Assembly (NCBI GenBank): GCA_943356775.1
Contig: CALRFU010000002.1
Span: 48,524 to 112,523, forward strand
Source: Candidatus Nomurabacteria bacterium
GTDB lineage: Bacteria; Patescibacteriota; Minisyncoccia; Phycocordibacterales; UBA2100
Direction: 5' to 3'
DNA: 64,000 bases
The notes under the pieces are model-generated. The model did not search any database. It saw nothing but the letters and a program-made list of their open reading frames with translations, and was not told the origin of the DNA. Shown piece by piece: positions 3,821-64,000 of this stretch. How positions within the stretch are numbered: position 1 is the stretch's first letter; each line of letters starts with the position of its first letter. The position numbers and the translations under genes were made by a program.

Positions 3821-4306
3821 TTAGAGTCGCACAATATCTCCAAGAACGATACCGTGCGCTACCGCGTAGCCTGCGGGGAGCTCCAAGACGTATCGAGCGG
3901 ACTTTGCGGGCACAAAATCATGAGGGTAGGTGTCGGGAGAGACGTTTTGAGCCATATATACGATGCTGCCATTAGATGAGAGCCAGAGAATGTCGATGGA
4001 AAAACGCATATCCTTCATCCAAAACGCGTACTCTCCGTCTTTGGGGAACACAAAAAGCATTCCTTCATCGGCAGCAAGTCCTGGATGCCCACTCAGACCC
4101 TGCCGCCGGGTTTCTTCAGTGTCTGCAACTGATACATAGATGGCCTGCCCCTTAAGTTGCAGGGTCCGCCATTCCAGAGTTTGCTCGGGAGCAGTCACCT
4201 CAAGCGGAGGATAGAAAAGAGGGCCTCCTTGAACTACCAAAAGAAGAATCGCGATGAGGGCGATTACTGCGAAAACGCCCTTCTTCATATAAAAGGGCTT
4301 ACTCAC
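3821..4306 (-). CDS. DUF192-family protein with an N-terminal membrane anchor
   Basis: 161 aa with a TM helix, then ADTEETRRQGLSG...MLFVFP...FWMKDMRFSIDILWL, typical of DUF192 (COG1430). Confidence 0.6.
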   Translation of the reverse strand: MSKPFYMKKGVFAVIALIAILLLVVQGGPLFYPPLEVTAPEQTLEWRTLQLKGQAIYVSVADTEETRRQGLSGHPGLAADEGMLFVFPKDGEYAFWMKDMRFSIDILWLSSNGSIVYMAQNVSPDTYPHDFVPAKSARYVLELPAGYAVAHGIVLGDIVRL

Positions 4307-4781
4307 CCAAATGCAGCTCTGTTGTATCCCCTTGGACGTCGTAGTCGTAAGAATAAGGAGTGAGCGCTTGTGAACCGACCACGAGAATGAGCGCCATCGC
4401 TATAAAAGCGACCAGCCAGTAGAAAACATTGATGAGATAAAGCTTGAGTGGCCGTTGCTCCGATAAGACCATGCCGAGAGAAGTCGGCACAACGAAACCA
4501 AGCCAGCACCAGAGTGCGAGCTCAAATATTGCACCCACCCAATCAAAGATATGGAATGCGATGCCGACATAATTCATCACGTACGCGACGAGCATGCTCC
4601 CGCACAGGCTCAGGATAACAGAGAGCGGCATCATTTTCTTGCCTCGCTCGGCCATCTCAGGCGTCACATTCGCAAGTCGCATCCATGTGGTACCGAAAAC
4701 GCGCGGATGATACCAAATCCATCCGATGAGGATCGAGGAGACACCGGCAGCGAGGATTGGCCAAAGAGTAACAGCAACCAT
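4299..4781 (-). CDS. DUF1761-like integral membrane protein
   Basis: 160 aa with 4 predicted TM helices and a WYHPRVFGTTW motif. Overlaps the next gene by 8 nt, suggesting an operon. Confidence 0.5.
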   Translation of the reverse strand: MVAVTLWPILAAGVSSILIGWIWYHPRVFGTTWMRLANVTPEMAERGKKMMPLSVILSLCGSMLVAYVMNYVGIAFHIFDWVGAIFELALWCWLGFVVPTSLGMVLSEQRPLKLYLINVFYWLVAFIAMALILVVGSQALTPYSYDYDVQGDTTELHLGE

Positions 4782-35813: not shown

Positions 35814-37580
35814 CTACCGAATCAAGTCTCTAATCCTCGCTCTGATTTTATCAAGCTGAAAATTGAATCTTTCCGCGGCAGGCTTTAGTTGCTCAAAATA
35901 GGCTCGATCCATTCCCTCACTAATCCGATTCATCCACCTCCCCATTTCATCAACGACCTGATTGTATATCGTGTCTTTTGTTGCGGCAGCTTTAAAATCA
36001 CCCGATGCCATTTCGGCAAGTGTATTTGAAATGTGCTCACTCTCAGATTTTGCGCTGTATATACTAAGCATGCCTGGTGGTGCTGACTCAAGTTTTTCCC
36101 ACCCCGTATATGTATATGGCGCATTATTGCCGTATAAAGTTGTTGACCAGTAGTCACTATTAACGCCCATAAAATTTGGATCTAAACTCATCGGATTTTT
36201 TCTTGTGTTATTTAAAAAATGCCCCACCTCGTGCACTCCGGTGAAAAATACATCGGCGTTTGACCTCTCCGGTGCTTCCGATATGTTCAATGTGTTCACA
36301 AAGTTGAAAGGAGATCCTAAGCTGCTGCTGTCGAGTGTAATTCCGAGATTATTTCCATTACTACCTAATAACGATATGTAAATATTCTGGGGTAACTTTT
36401 CGAAAACGGCGGAATTGAAAGTCTCTCGGAGACCCCGCGTCCACACATCTGCACGATCCGCCCAATCTTGCATTGGCAAGAGATTTGGAGTTGCGCCTGT
36501 CCCACCACCTTTTGCGTCAGCGACCCCCAAGCCTACCGCAGTTTGTATATCTGTTTGCGTAAAGCCAGTAAATGAACTGAGCGAGGGTGAAGGCACAAAA
36601 GTCATCCGATTGCCGGTGGTATCTCGAAGCTGCTGGTCATAGTTTGGTATATTATATGCTTCTGCACCCATAGATCTAAATTCTTGCAACCTATTGAGGG
36701 AAATGTCCTGTGCGATGCCTGATGTTTTCACAAGTCCATCTTGATTTTGCAGTAAGCGCAATTGTTCTTGAGCGTCAATCTGCGATGTTAGACTTTTTAG
36801 TTCAGGATTGTCCGCGATTCCTTTTGCCAATGACGAAAGGTCAACATTTCTCCCCAAGTATGCATCTTCGAGTGCCGCATATCTGGCGCGAGGATCGCCC
36901 TCGTTGATCCACTCGCGAAGTGATTCGATAGGAGTGTTTCTATCTACGGTCGTTTCCTGTCCATCTGCTCCTCGCAGAGTAATTGTTTTACCATCGAGAG
37001 TATCGTTGATTCGCAATATCTCGTTTCCTGTAAAGGCGTTATAGTAGCTATAGTCAAATTTCAAGAAATACCGTGTCTCGTCCAAATCCAGCGGACTTCC
37101 AGCTTTGCCACGAAGTTGGGCACGAACATCTTCGGTTGCATAATAATCGAGTTCTTTTCCATAGTTGCTGATAATATCTTGCCACTCTTTGCGACATGCG
37201 CCTCCCCCCATCTCGGGATTACAAGGTGCTTGCGATTTTTCGGAGATCGCTTTGCACGTACCTTCTTTATCGCAGATTCGCTCCACCTTACATGAGCCTT
37301 CTTTTGTGCAGTGCCCCTTGAGTGTATCGCCACTCGATTCTTTATCCGAACATTGCACCTTCGTAATATCTTCGAGTTTGCCGAGTTGATTCTTGCAAAA
37401 CTCGTTTGCGGATTTGCTTCCGGACGATGCCTGCGTTTCTGGTTCAGCCGCAGCACCAGCCGCAAATAAAGTATCTTTTTGTGGTTTGAAATCCATCAAG
37501 GCGATTGCAAACGAAATGAATACGACGAGAGCCGCGATTGTCAAAATCGGTAGAATCCCCCCCCCTGACTTCTCAACCAT
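35814..37580 (-). CDS. putative membrane-anchored zinc metallopeptidase (HExxH)
   Basis: 588 aa. N-terminal TM, Cys-rich region, and a single HEVGHF motif. A TATAAT box lies 10 nt upstream of the ATG, suggesting a leaderless mRNA. Confidence 0.55.
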   Translation of the reverse strand: MVEKSGGGILPILTIAALVVFISFAIALMDFKPQKDTLFAAGAAAEPETQASSGSKSANEFCKNQLGKLEDITKVQCSDKESSGDTLKGHCTKEGSCKVERICDKEGTCKAISEKSQAPCNPEMGGGACRKEWQDIISNYGKELDYYATEDVRAQLRGKAGSPLDLDETRYFLKFDYSYYNAFTGNEILRINDTLDGKTITLRGADGQETTVDRNTPIESLREWINEGDPRARYAALEDAYLGRNVDLSSLAKGIADNPELKSLTSQIDAQEQLRLLQNQDGLVKTSGIAQDISLNRLQEFRSMGAEAYNIPNYDQQLRDTTGNRMTFVPSPSLSSFTGFTQTDIQTAVGLGVADAKGGGTGATPNLLPMQDWADRADVWTRGLRETFNSAVFEKLPQNIYISLLGSNGNNLGITLDSSSLGSPFNFVNTLNISEAPERSNADVFFTGVHEVGHFLNNTRKNPMSLDPNFMGVNSDYWSTTLYGNNAPYTYTGWEKLESAPPGMLSIYSAKSESEHISNTLAEMASGDFKAAATKDTIYNQVVDEMGRWMNRISEGMDRAYFEQLKPAAERFNFQLDKIRARIRDLIR

Positions 37581-61459: not shown

Positions 61460-62077
61460 ATGCAAACGATCCTGCTCATAGACGGAGAGAACATTAAGGG
61501 CAAAATCCGGTCCGTCTTCAAGGATGCCAGTAAGGCAAAGCCGGTTTGGCACGAATACGATTTCCGAGGACTTTTGGATAAGGTTCTGGAGGGCATCAAA
61601 ATAGACCGGAAGGTATTTTATTTTGCGCGTATCAAAGAGCACGAGCAGAGTAAAGAGAAATCAAAACAACTCATCGAGGACCAGCGACAGTTCAAGACGC
61701 ATTTGGAGAAGCAGGGCTTCGAGGTGATCTTGAGCGGACGAGTGCGCGGGCAGTTGGAAGACGGGCAGGGCGGTAAAAAGATGCTGGTCTTCAAAGAGAA
61801 GGGCGTGGACGTGAAGATCGCCGTTGATATGGTCAGCTTATCGTGCGACAAGAAGGTCAAAGAGATAATCCTCGGCAGTTCCGACAGCGATCTTCAACCG
61901 GCGATCAAAGAAGTACGGGATCGGCAGGTCAGTTGCGTATATCTTGGGTTTGAAGCGCAACCGAACAAGGGAATGACGTTTACGACGAACAGGACTATTT
62001 TGATACGAAACTCCGAACTATTTGAGTTTGAAAAAATACAGCCAACACTCATTTCGACTGATCCGCCTCGCCATTAG
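61460..62077 (+). CDS. NYN-domain (LabA-like, PIN-like) protein
   Basis: MQTILLIDGENIKGK... and GVDVKIAVDMVSL...IILGSSDSDLQPAIKEV match NYN/LabA acidic-residue motifs. The 3' end overlaps the RT 3' end by 29 nt on the opposite strand. Confidence 0.75.
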   Translation: MQTILLIDGENIKGKIRSVFKDASKAKPVWHEYDFRGLLDKVLEGIKIDRKVFYFARIKEHEQSKEKSKQLIEDQRQFKTHLEKQGFEVILSGRVRGQLEDGQGGKKMLVFKEKGVDVKIAVDMVSLSCDKKVKEIILGSSDSDLQPAIKEVRDRQVSCVYLGFEAQPNKGMTFTTNRTILIRNSELFEFEKIQPTLISTDPPRH

Positions 62078-63083
62078 GTTCCCGCATCCTTTCTACCTCA
62101 TCCTCGACAACCTGTCGCAGCTTTTTGGTATTCCCATGGCTCATCAATCCAAAGTAGGATTGCACCGTTTCTTCCTTACCCTGTCGCGCTTTGATACCGC
62201 GAAACATTCTGTTTTTCGTAGTTGTACGCAAAACTCGATGGTCGAGAAAATGCACCCAGCCCAGAAAATCCACGCCTGACGCAAGGGTGCGCAGAGAAAT
62301 CTTTTGTGGGTGGAGCGTTAGTCGCAACTCGTCCCGTAAAAAATCTCCCATACGCGACAACACCTCTTGTAGCCATTTTCTATCAGTCGAGAGCAACACG
62401 AAATCATCGGCGTAGCGGACGTAATGCTTTACTCGAAGCTGTTGCTTCACAAAATGGTCAAACTCGTTCATATACACATTGACCAAGAGCTGGGAGGTGA
62501 GGTTGCCGAGAGGGAGCCCTACACTTCTTTCGCTTGAGTGGAAGCTCTCGATGATTTGGGATAGAAGCCAGAGAATGTCGTCATTTTGGATATAGCGTCG
62601 CAGTATCTCCATCAAACGGGCGTGGTCTACCGAGGCAAAGAACTTCCGTATGTCGCATTTGAGCACCCAAACCGTGCGCGTGTGATTATGAGATACCTGA
62701 TAGGCAAAGGAGCGAAAGCAATTTACCGCCTTGTGCCCGCCTTTATTTCTTCTGCACGAGTAAGAGTGGGCAATGAAAGTCCTATCAAAAAATGGGTAGA
62801 GCTTGCGGTAGAGCGCGTGATGCAGCAAACGGTCTCTCACGCTCGCCTTATGTATGTTCCGTGGCTTTGGGTCGGAAATGTTGAACGCCTCATACGGAGA
62901 ATGTTTGTATGTTTTGGCAGCAAGGTCTCGATGGAGTGAAAGAATGTGGTACATCAGATTGTGCTCGAACTTTTGGACATCGGTACGGGACCGCTTGCCC
63001 CGCACAAACTCTTTCCATGCCTCAAGCAGATTTTCGACGGAAATGATACTCTCGTAGGTATGAACGAGTTGGATGCGGGCCAT
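62049..63083 (-). CDS. diversity-generating retroelement (DGR) reverse transcriptase
   Basis: RT motifs 1-7 are present (PRNIHKASVRDRLLHHALY, KCDIRKFFASVDHARL, YADD in VRYADDFVLL). Motif 4 reads LPLGNLTSQLLVNVYMNEFD, the DGR-diagnostic GxxxSQ, in place of the group II/retron QGxxxSP. 344 aa with no maturase or endonuclease domains. Start MARIQLVHTY; ATG at 63081-63083 verified. Confidence 0.85.
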   Translation of the reverse strand: MARIQLVHTYESIISVENLLEAWKEFVRGKRSRTDVQKFEHNLMYHILSLHRDLAAKTYKHSPYEAFNISDPKPRNIHKASVRDRLLHHALYRKLYPFFDRTFIAHSYSCRRNKGGHKAVNCFRSFAYQVSHNHTRTVWVLKCDIRKFFASVDHARLMEILRRYIQNDDILWLLSQIIESFHSSERSVGLPLGNLTSQLLVNVYMNEFDHFVKQQLRVKHYVRYADDFVLLSTDRKWLQEVLSRMGDFLRDELRLTLHPQKISLRTLASGVDFLGWVHFLDHRVLRTTTKNRMFRGIKARQGKEETVQSYFGLMSHGNTKKLRQVVEDEVERMREPNGEADQSK

Positions 63084-63096
63084 ATCATTGAAGCGT

Positions 63097-63110
63097 CCCC
63101 CCCCCCCCCC
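63097..63110. repeat. C14 homopolymer (G14 on the RT strand) between the divergent RT and avd starts
   Basis: Read directly. 14 consecutive C lie 14 nt upstream of the RT start codon on the minus strand and 12 nt upstream of the annotated avd TTG on the plus strand. Confidence 0.9.
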
Positions 63111-63121
63111 GACTTCTGCCT

Positions 63122-63478
63122 TTGTTACAGAAGGTAAAAAATGCGTACCTGTTGTGGTACGGCTACTATCAGGCCATTCCGAAAGTCCACAGGCATTCTC
63201 TTGGTCAGCGAGTTGATACATTGTTTGTTGAGATCATGGAAACGATAGCGGCGGCGAGTTTTCTTGTACGGGAAGAAAAACGACCTTACGTGCGTCTCGC
63301 CATCAGAAAAACAGATACCTTGAAAGTGCTTTTGATGCTGCTGTGGGAAACGAAGTCATTGGACAACAAAAAGTATGCCGCACTTTCGGTGAAAGTAGAA
63401 GAAATCGGCAAGATGCTCGGCGGCTGGAATGGACAGCTTACAAAACTCGACCCCGCCAAGAAGCGGGGTGAGAAGTGA
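63122..63478 (+). CDS. avd: Avd-like accessory variability determinant (four-helix-bundle / 23S rRNA-IVS protein family)
   Basis: WYGYYQAIPKVHRH aligns to bAvd YLYPIAQSIPRKHG. KVEEIGKMLGGWNGQLTKL aligns to IAEVGRILGSWIARVNRK. The start is uncertain: TTG at 63122, with about 15 aa missing relative to bAvd. It is on the opposite strand to RT and TR. Confidence 0.75.
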   Translation: MLQKVKNAYLLWYGYYQAIPKVHRHSLGQRVDTLFVEIMETIAAASFLVREEKRPYVRLAIRKTDTLKVLLMLLWETKSLDNKKYAALSVKVEEIGKMLGGWNGQLTKLDPAKKRGEK

Positions 63479-63484
63479 AGCGAG

Positions 63485-63620
63485 TTGCGAAGCGAGCCGC
63501 AGGGTTGTTGTCGTTCCAGTCGTTGTCGAGCCAGTTCCAGTTCACCACCACCTCGCCACCGTTCTCGATGAGGTACGGGACGTTGAGGTTGCCGTCGCGG
63601 TTCTGCACGATTGTACAAAA
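63485..63620 (-). repeat. DGR template repeat (TR), adenines on the minus strand; the 3' end carries an IMH*-like GC-rich element
   Basis: Plus 63485-63538 matches plus 63947-64000 at 45 of 54 positions. Eight of the 9 mismatches are T in this copy on the plus strand (A on the minus strand) against A/G/C in the other copy. On the minus strand the TR reads GTG AAC TGG AAC TGG CTC GAC AAC GAC TGG AAC GAC AAC AAC CCT GCG GCT CGC TTC GCA, rich in AAC codons. The far (5') boundary is not determinable because the VR is cut by the window edge. Confidence 0.65.
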
Positions 63621-63842
63621 TGCCGTCCGTTGCACTGCCCATTGAATACTCGCCGAGCTGTATCGTATTCGGCATCGGTAAATGCCATAGCACTTTGTAC
63701 CAAGTATCTTCAACTTTTTGTGAGCTTCGCATATGCCACTCCATCTCAAACCGTGGTCGGAGATGCTCTCGGCGTATGGACGCTGGGTTCGGTAGCGGGA
63801 AACCGTAATCGCCCGCGTATTCACCTACTTCCGCTTCGCATT

Positions 63843-63888
63843 GTATCAAAACAAAACCCCGCGCTGCCATATTTCAGACAACGCGGGG
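63843..63888 (-). terminator. rho-independent terminator of the DGR target gene
   Basis: Minus strand CCCCGCG-N18-CGCGGGG followed by UUUUGUUUUG, about 55 nt after the target stop. Confidence 0.6.
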
Positions 63889-63941
63889 CAAAGGGCAAGG
63901 TGCAAAGGGTCAAACAAGACCCAAGGCACCAAGCACCGAGT

Positions 63942-64000
63942 TCAACTTGCGAAGCGAGCCGCAGGGTAGTAAGCGAACCAGTCGTAGGCGAGCCAGTCCC
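63942..64000 (-). CDS. DGR target (variable) protein, C-terminal end only; the gene continues beyond the window edge
   Basis: The minus strand reads ...D W L A Y D W F A Y Y P A A R F A S stop (TGA at 63942-63944). This is in frame with the TR-encoded N W L D N D W N D N N P A A R F A. Codon changes N->D/Y/F and D->A all arise from A->N substitutions at first/second positions of AAC/GAC codons. Confidence 0.65.
   Translation of the reverse strand, partial: DWLAYDWFAYYPAARFAS
63947..64000 (-). repeat. DGR variable repeat (VR), partial, with IMH-like 20-mer CCCTGCGGCTCGCTTCGCAA at its 3' end
   Basis: See the TR entry. The 20-nt GC-rich block is identical in TR and VR. Flanking sequence diverges immediately 3' of it. 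Confidence 0.65.

Follow-up and report, generated by a model that had tools for sequence, protein, structure and literature searches.

Simple-sequence repeats that switch genes at the level of translation make up contingency loci in several pathogens. Examples are the tetranucleotide repeats in lic and hgp of Haemophilus influenzae and the poly-G or poly-C tracts in Campylobacter jejuni and Neisseria (PMC11868660, PMC3546556, PMC6321876). Here we describe a run of 14 C residues (C14) in a diversity-generating retroelement (DGR) of a Candidatus Nomurabacteria bacterium. The tract lies between the start of the reverse transcriptase (RT) gene and the core of the divergent gene avd, which encodes an accessory protein, in a stretch of 64,000 nucleotides of contig CALRFU010000002.1 (the window, below). 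We consider slipped-strand translational phase variation of avd, which would gate mutagenesis by the DGR, to be the best explanation, with a probability of roughly 0.75.

The repeats found in avd resemble those of known contingency loci in several respects. They are homopolymers or non-triplet repeats with units of 2, 4 or 7 nt located a few codons past the start, they vary in length between near-identical strains, and the open reading frames (ORFs) of the OFF alleles are intact. Some motif types (CAAT, CCAA, AGTC and poly-C/G) are common to both. In contrast to the pathogen loci, those described here are in uncultivated Patescibacteria, or candidate phyla radiation (CPR) bacteria, the gated gene encodes an accessory protein of a retroelement rather than a surface structure or a restriction-modification enzyme, and switching is proposed from sequence comparison. 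The phase-variable Type III mod genes ("phasevarions", PMC5909438) share a hierarchical logic with our case: the repeat sits inside the reading frame of a regulator or generator and toggles a diversification programme across the population. Their output is an altered methylome and altered gene expression, whereas the output here would be permission for adenine-directed mutagenesis of one target. Promoter-located repeat switches, such as those of Neisseria nadA (PMC2791445) and Helicobacter sabA (PMC4081817), are similar in that the repeat lies between divergent genes and near a start codon. Unlike in nadA and sabA, the repeat here is inside the avd reading frame, is followed by a coding signature, reaches about 50 nt and does not fit a promoter spacer.

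The element itself is like the DGR of Bordetella phage BPP-1 (mtd-avd-TR-brt, where TR is the template repeat; structures 4dwl and 8ub7). Both have an RVT_1 RT, an Avd with the four-helix bundle of bAvd, differences between TR and the variable repeat (VR) at adenines only, and a VR at the 3′ end of the target gene. Unlike in BPP-1, avd is inverted with respect to target, TR and RT, overlaps the RT start divergently by 24 nt and has a disordered leader with a hypermutable repeat.

Apart from C14, no homopolymer in the window exceeds 9 nt, and the base composition predicts about 6e-4 such runs by chance. A reading made from the letters of the window alone (the sequence-only reading) had placed this tract between the divergent RT start and the Avd core and had proposed that it could work as a slipped-strand switch on avd. 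All its sequence statements hold (Table 1), although it had overlooked the ATG at 63060 and the TGA in the Avd frame. C14 separates the Avd core from both upstream ATGs, because a TGA lies in the Avd frame 5′ of the tract (63089-63091) and a TAA in the leader frame (63135). From the ATG at 63060 (frame A), the C14 allele translates as MNELDAGHIIEAS-PPPP-DFCLCYRR and stops at 63135-63137. The ORF from the ATG at 63073 (frame B) has 47 codons and ends at 63216, one nucleotide off the Avd frame. In the ORF listing, Avd opens only at TTG 63122 (63122-63478, 118 aa). A tract of 13 C would join ATG 63073 to Avd and give a product beginning with MRAISLKRPPPPRLLP. An Avd started upstream is predicted to have the N-terminal peptide MNELDAGHIIEASPPPR- or MRAISLKRPPPPR-, as opposed to an N-terminus at 63122.

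The start codons of avd and RT overlap divergently by exactly 24 nt, each ATG being antisense to codon 8 (His, CAT) of the other gene. Therefore, the promoters of avd and RT must each lie within the other gene. A scan of positions 62850-63650 for sigma-70-like promoters, the only type it covered, found none. In a switch of the promoter-spacer type, the repeat is between the promoter hexamers or upstream of them, and outside any ORF; here it is in the translated leader. A role of the tract on the RT strand, where it reads as G14, was also considered. Its use as the Shine-Dalgarno sequence of RT was set aside, as (CTGG)n, (ATTG)n or (TC)n stands there on the RT strand in other lineages. Any role of the G-tract in RT translation is unlikely, since unrelated repeat motifs fill the same site elsewhere.

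To collect related junctions, we used the Avd core alone, blind to the tract. The 118-aa core had about 2000 relatives in a sequence search, most of them labelled Patescibacteria. Loci were taken from 80 species-representative genomes and 80 metagenome contigs. Of 144 unique junctions from Patescibacteria genomes and metagenomes, 126 had a repeat at this site. In 105 junctions it was poly-C of 7-14 nt with a mode of 10, the C14 of the window being the longest. The other 21 carried (CCAG)n, (CCAA)n, (CAAT)n, (CGAA)n, (CAGT)n, (CA)n, (GA)n or one of three heptamers, up to 52 nt in total. The unit sizes were 1, 2, 4 and 7, and the sole multiple of three was a trivial CCGx3. By a measure that asks for some 7-8 identical nt or more in a row, or for repeated copies of a unit whose size is not a multiple of 3, these repeats count as hypermutable. 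The scope of the phenomenon is much larger than one tract.

A divergent RT adjoins 125 of the 126 repeat-bearing loci, and the gap between RT ATG and repeat has its mode at 13 nt. The window has an open minus-strand frame of 390 aa across the tract, which would be compatible with an RT start 5′ of it. We rejected this start, because only 10 of 125 loci have an RT frame that stays open across the repeat; the repeat therefore sits just outside the RT ORF.

Repeat length was variable among close relatives. Six groups of loci had identical flanks and unequal repeat lengths, and 32 of 39 pairs with near-identical flanks differed in length. One series of (CCAG)n repeats measured 37, 41 and 45 nt with identical flanks, so homopolymer sequencing error is no explanation for these. 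At 78 of the 126 repeat-bearing loci, avd was out of frame (OFF), including 9 of the 21 with repeats other than poly-C. None of the 78 had a stop within the 104 core codons; therefore, the OFF loci are not decaying pseudogenes. The junction survey and the length polymorphism together lend strong comparative support to a slipped-strand switch on avd.

Several results indicate that avd is translated from upstream of the repeat and across it. Of 18 junctions without a hypermutable repeat, 17 were in frame with an upstream ATG, compared with 8.4 expected by chance; the single exception is in phase, with the ATG changed to ATA. Among repeat-bearing junctions, the fraction was 48 of 126 (Fisher p=4e-6). 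The sequence-only reading had itself named relatives that lack the tract and keep a short avd as evidence that would overturn it. Instead, 17 of 18 tract-free relatives keep the long avd, and none relies on the short form started at TTG. A stricter module, ATG-N18-CAT, was found in 37 of 83 loci, with all six repeat-free loci in phase 0 and repeat-bearing ones distributed 12:8:11 over the three phases. We did not retain this module as the definition of the avd start, because it caught only those 37 and because overlaps may also be 21 or 41 nt, or the ATG may lie 4 nt beyond the RT ATG.

The stretch from the repeat to TTG 63122 has a coding signature. Positions -4 to -1 before this TTG encode (R/K)(L/I)LP, with Pro in 143 of 144 loci and all four Pro codons in use. 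The Leu is spelled TTG, TTA, CTG or CTA, with entropies of 0.89/0.51/1.46 by codon position. The position of TTG 63122 varies among Leu, Val and Ile codons (TTG, CTT, GTT, CTA). No start codon was found between the repeat and the (R/K)(L/I)LP residues, and at 36 of the 126 repeat-bearing loci the five codons that follow the core start include no ATG, GTG or TTG. Translation therefore begins upstream and crosses the repeat, which comparative evidence places inside the avd ORF. By this comparison, TTG 63122 appears to be an internal Leu codon and not a start, and ATG 63060 the start conserved in relatives. The sequence-only reading was right about the position of the tract. An avd start at TTG 63122 did not stand, as (R/K)(L/I)LP is conserved before the TTG, and the tract is part of the coding sequence rather than intergenic.

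Many homologs begin with ...PPP(P)RLLPLLQK, so the region of the C-run is translated as prolines in the Avd frame. The prolines of the tract are all CCC, whereas CCC makes up only 27% of Pro codons in Avd cores, and repeat-free relatives write the corresponding prolines CCG CCA or CCG CCG. This codon usage points to mutability of the DNA, and not the peptide, as the thing under selection.

For the lineage of the window, alleles were drawn from members of 90%-identity protein clusters around the nearest relatives. Across seven assemblies whose flanks agree at 99.8-100%, the tract was C10 (L166, L170), C11 (L168), C12 (L001), C13 (L165, L169) or C14 (window). The flank comparison covered up to about 1.8 kb, with matches of 999-1000/1000 nt on the left (600/601 for L170, a short contig) and 779-780/780 nt on the right (657/657 for L170). 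The tract is thus polymorphic in repeat number between near-identical strains. The closest relative, L001, has the same gene order, an Avd 98% identical and identical flanks, and its C12 puts ATG 63060 in frame. Proteins P0001, P0121, P0123 and P0124 read through the tract from frame A. L002, L003 and L004, with C11, C11 and C10, are all in frame with an upstream ATG. The C13 allele foreseen by the sequence-only reading is real: it occurs in L165 and L169, and protein P0125 begins with MRAISLKRPPPPRLLP. C13 does restore avd, as a second, lineage-specific ON frame; it does not reveal the conserved start, which appears to be ATG 63060 (C12/C15). A metagenome scan for further alleles of this locus found only relatives of at most 83% identity. 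Same-core Avd proteins in the 90% clusters had called lengths of 103-176 aa. A look-up of the exact 118-aa protein started at TTG gave no record, the gene callers having picked other starts.

We propose the following mechanism. Translation of avd would start 5′ of the tract. Its canonical start would be ATG 63060, which lies opposite the first eight codons of RT on the other strand. The ribosome would read a short disordered leader, the tract as poly-proline and then the four-helix core from R-L-L-P. Slipped-strand mispairing in replication would alter the tract length and hence the reading frame of avd. C12 and C15 would be ON through ATG 63060, C10, C13 and C16 would be ON through ATG 63073, and C11 and C14 would be OFF. 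The window would then hold the OFF allele (C14) of a switch with three states: frame A, frame B and OFF. For cDNA synthesis in the Bordetella phage system, the RT-Avd complex together with the DGR RNA is both necessary and sufficient (PMC6182149); therefore, a cell with avd OFF should make no mutagenised cDNA and should not diversify its VR. The repeat would be a heritable, reversible and stochastic gate on DGR hypermutation. The sequences show the layout and the frames, the length differences among assemblies, the family-wide repeat at the site and the coding status of the leader. We infer that populations switch often and reversibly, that OFF alleles make no Avd protein and that retrohoming stops as a result.

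Several points weigh against phase variation. The in-frame share of repeat-bearing loci, 38%, is no higher than the about 43% given by random length; frame state alone therefore shows no selection for ON and cannot decide whether the repeat is coding. Neither a promoter nor a ribosome-binding site was identified for avd. In 49 of 78 OFF loci, TTG 63122 of the window included, the core start coincides with a TTG or GTG or closely follows one; weak initiation at such codons could turn an on/off switch into one between high and low expression. Some expression could also leak through slippage of the transcribing polymerase, or frameshifting of the ribosome, on long C runs. The need of this RT for Avd is assumed from the Bordetella phage system. 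The tract lengths are those of assembly consensus sequences, heterogeneity within samples and reversibility are predictions, and the one-base differences between C14 and C13 and between C12 and C11, each pair with a common VR variant, could be consensus noise in short-read assemblies. The 144 junctions are phylogenetically non-independent, and seven of them belong to the lineage of the window.

The doubt about one-base differences leads to an alternative, already raised by the sequence-only reading, in which the tract length is an error: the true tract would be in frame (C12 or C13), avd would be a constitutive long ORF and C14 an artefact. We regard this as possible, if doubtful. One VR variant is common to the window (C14) and L169 (C13), as far as the 54 nt of VR inside the window allow comparison, another to L001 (C12) and L168 (C11), and a third occurs in L166 (C10). 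Either the tract changes at least as fast as VR, or the one-base differences are sequencing noise. Assemblies that agree in VR variant and in 1000/1000 nt of flank are seemingly from the same strain, one-base differences are typical of homopolymer error, and C14 is the longest of the 105 poly-C tracts. However, the range from C10 to C14 within one lineage exceeds a one-base error. A length error cannot yield the out-of-frame tetra- and heptanucleotide repeats or the (CCAG)n series, and it would leave unexplained both the non-triplet repeats of 126 junctions and the exclusive use of CCC. A length error is plausible for the window's assembly alone, and the family-wide pattern is untouched by it.

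Long homopolymers provoke transcriptional slippage. Slippage of the polymerase, or +1/-1 frameshifting by the ribosome, might therefore yield some Avd from every allele, with tract length setting the level. OFF alleles are common, yet their Avd cores are intact and VRs in this lineage are diversified, as such a graded output would predict. A reversible DNA switch predicts intact cores in OFF loci equally well, and the repeats of 2-, 4- and 7-nt units at the same site are poor slippage substrates for polymerases and ribosomes. We consider graded expression from all alleles unlikely.

The repeat might instead be a non-coding spacer in a control region shared by RT and avd, tuning transcription or the 5′ leader of RT, with Avd starting at TTG 63122. 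Its position between divergent genes, 13 nt from the RT ATG, would suit this function, as would the random appearance of the frame states and the TTG or GTG at or near many core starts. A spacer would not explain why 17 of 18 repeat-free loci are in frame with an upstream ATG, why the residues between repeat and TTG 63122 are kept with synonymous drift while the TTG is not conserved as a start, or how the 36 loci that lack a start codon just after the core start would be translated. Moreover, repeats of 28-52 nt do not fit a -35/-10 spacer of 16-18 nt, the promoter scan was negative, and the unit sizes avoid multiples of three. Such a spacer is quite improbable. Least probable by far is selection for a poly-proline linker needed by Avd, with the homopolymer a mere by-product: many in-frame homologs do have the ...PPP(P)RLLPLLQK start, but the site is filled by QPAS-, NQPT-, SVSQ- or TH-type repeats, or by no repeat, in other lineages, some homologs are called from an ATG at MPLLQK or MLLPVLQR without prolines, and the CCC-only codons and the predicted disorder of the leader also speak against it.

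The preference for a translational switch agrees with what is predicted for the Avd protein. The ORF matches the Pfam family bAvd (PF22296) with 44.4 bits against a cut-off of 40, and its residues 4-103 cover profile positions 6-104 of 107. In the AlphaFold model of P0004, a full-length in-frame relative (mean confidence, pLDDT, 83.5), residues 1-17 are without secondary structure and helix 1 begins at LLP right after the prolines. Foldseek superposed this model on the solved bAvd 4dwl with a root-mean-square deviation of 1.4-1.8 A and a TM score of 0.87-0.90 (normalised to bAvd), and the Avd of 8ub7 was also matched. Sequence searches of the Protein Data Bank, with a single sequence and with a 30-sequence profile, found no bAvd. 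The profile match above cut-off and the four-helix-bundle fold place the protein in the bAvd family. The sequence-only reading had held that about 15 N-terminal residues were missing relative to bAvd. Judged by the profile and the modelled fold, the core already accounts for the ordered bAvd, and there is no such deficit. In other lineages, the leader peptide is made of QPAS-, NQPT-, SVSQ- or TH-type repeats, or of no repeat, and disorder of the leader explains the tolerance of poly-Pro, QPAS-, NQPT- and SVSQ-type peptides. The sequence-only reading had also pointed to an ATG at 63141 with a GAAGGT ribosome-binding site (ORF 63141-63248). This stretch consists of the codons for QKVKNA, and the ATG is absent in L002-L005, which have AAAAGTGCG or AAAAGCGCG, so we dismissed it as a chance ORF.

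Table 1. Coordinates of the RT/avd junction and the surrounding DGR, numbered by position in the window
Feature	Position	Strand	Remarks
C14 simple-sequence repeat	63097..63110	+	Within the predicted coding leader at the 5′ end of avd; reads G14 on the RT strand; 13 nt to RT ATG
RT start codon	63081-63083	-	Reads CAT on +; RT is encoded on minus
Putative avd start, frame A (MNELDAGHIIEAS-)	63060..63062	+	ATG; antisense to RT codon 8 (His); in frame with the core only at C12/C15
Putative alternative avd start, frame B (MRAISLKR-)	63073..63075	+	ATG; in frame at C10/C13/C16; used by P0125 (C13) and P0126 (C10)
TGA in Avd frame, 5′ of tract	63089..63091	+	Shuts the Avd frame in C14 and C11 alleles
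TAA ending the frame-A leader peptide (MNELDAGHIIEASPPPPDFCLCYRR, then stop) at C14	63135..63137	+	ORF 62946..63137
Avd core coding sequence (R-L-L-P-LLQKVK...GEK)	63110..63478	+	Four-helix bundle (predicted); TTG 63122 a probable internal Leu codon
DGR reverse transcriptase	62049..63083	-	Pfam RVT_1, E=2.3e-24; first 24 nt lie opposite the avd leader
Template repeat (TR)	63485..63613	- (sense)	129-nt repeat pair; 7 nt beyond the avd stop
Variable repeat (VR), partial	63947..64000	-	Runs off the window; 3′ end of a 194-aa target gene

The cassette around the junction is, by its sequence and that of its relatives, a complete and recently active DGR. On the minus strand, the order is target with VR, TR, inverted avd and RT (window 63485-64000; L001 3523-4564). 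The isogenic L001 contains the complete VR at 3985-4113, within a minus-strand ORF (3980..4564, 194 aa). All 14 differences between the two repeat copies are at plus-strand T of the first copy, which is minus-strand A. Therefore, the first copy is TR, in minus sense, and the second is VR. Among assemblies with identical flanks and identical TR there were three VR variants, all differing at positions of TR adenines, and diversification is therefore recent. An RT beside the repeats, differences at TR adenines, a VR at the 3′ end of the target and ongoing diversification are thus all found here.

The sense strand of TR is the minus strand, as for RT and target, and an RNA running past TR would cross avd and the repeat in antisense toward RT. 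A hairpin resembling a terminator, ACCCCGC-TTCT-TGGCGGGGT with a T-rich tail behind it, is at 63450-63469 on the minus strand, just 3′ of TR and inside the 3′ codons of avd. It could end or structure the TR RNA. A weaker second hairpin is at 63144-63161.

Some relatives of the cassette are irregular in content or in their records. On the contig of L005 (JAJXVV010000002.1), a second avd-like copy (L007) about 6 kb away matches residues 15-118 only, with no adjoining divergent RT and no junction repeat; it may be a truncated or orphan avd. Five contigs with RT and avd of the Patescibacteria type (L006, L008, L024, L059 and L081) are labelled "Methanosarcinales archaeon" or "Gammaproteobacteria bacterium" in automated records of metagenome-assembled genomes. 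These labels are probably binning or labelling errors. The Avd proteins P0006 and P0136 are labelled "IS1 family transposase" by the Joint Genome Institute (JGI).

Outside the DGR, the window has a second homopolymer, G9, at 37557-37565. It occupies codons 6-8 (MVEKSGGGILP...) of a minus-strand ORF (35814..37580) for a 588-aa protein with a hydrophobic N-terminus. C14 and G9 are the only runs longer than 7 nt in the window, and both are near the 5′ end of a gene. With identical flanks, the site has G9 in L171, L172, L173 and L175, and G8 in L174 and L176, where the gene call is 532 aa without the N-terminus. On these sequences, the ORF is a candidate for a second phase-variable gene. The behaviour of G9 parallels that of C14 and adds to the case for the switch on avd. 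For a toxin gene next to the G9 tract, a protein look-up matched with an ATG start, not with a GTG start.

We know of no such repeat in the avd of BPP-1. A DGR review, a large DGR survey and an Avd biochemistry paper describe no repeats, homopolymers, frameshifts or slipped-strand mispairing in avd or DGRs, the literature search having covered papers available without subscription. What seems to be new is the pairing of a repeat switch with the accessory gene of a system for hypermutation, and this in CPR bacteria that have not been cultivated. We found no prior description of it.

For the annotation of these genomes, the repeat has a practical consequence. Automated annotation miscalls avd, as seen from the 103-176 aa called for near-identical genes, and surveys of DGRs that score the presence of avd should record its reading phase too.

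The restraint of DGR mutagenesis is largely unexplained, and unchecked adenine mutagenesis of a working target protein is costly. On balance, we lean towards the view that DGR hypermutation in much of the Patescibacteria is under a second heritable, reversible and stochastic switch, formed by a slippery repeat, reinvented with at least ten motifs, in a disordered avd leader that overlaps the RT start. Most cells would be silent and a minority on, with three states in some lineages including this one. If true, the switch would be the first case of DGR activity regulated naturally at the level of DNA, and it would count as evidence that CPR bacteria have contingency loci. Loci of this slipped-strand kind, so far known chiefly from pathogens adapted to a host, would then act in CPR bacteria as well, and the G9 tract of the window is a second candidate. 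It would amount to bet-hedging at two levels: a random choice of the cells that diversify, followed by targeted diversification in them.

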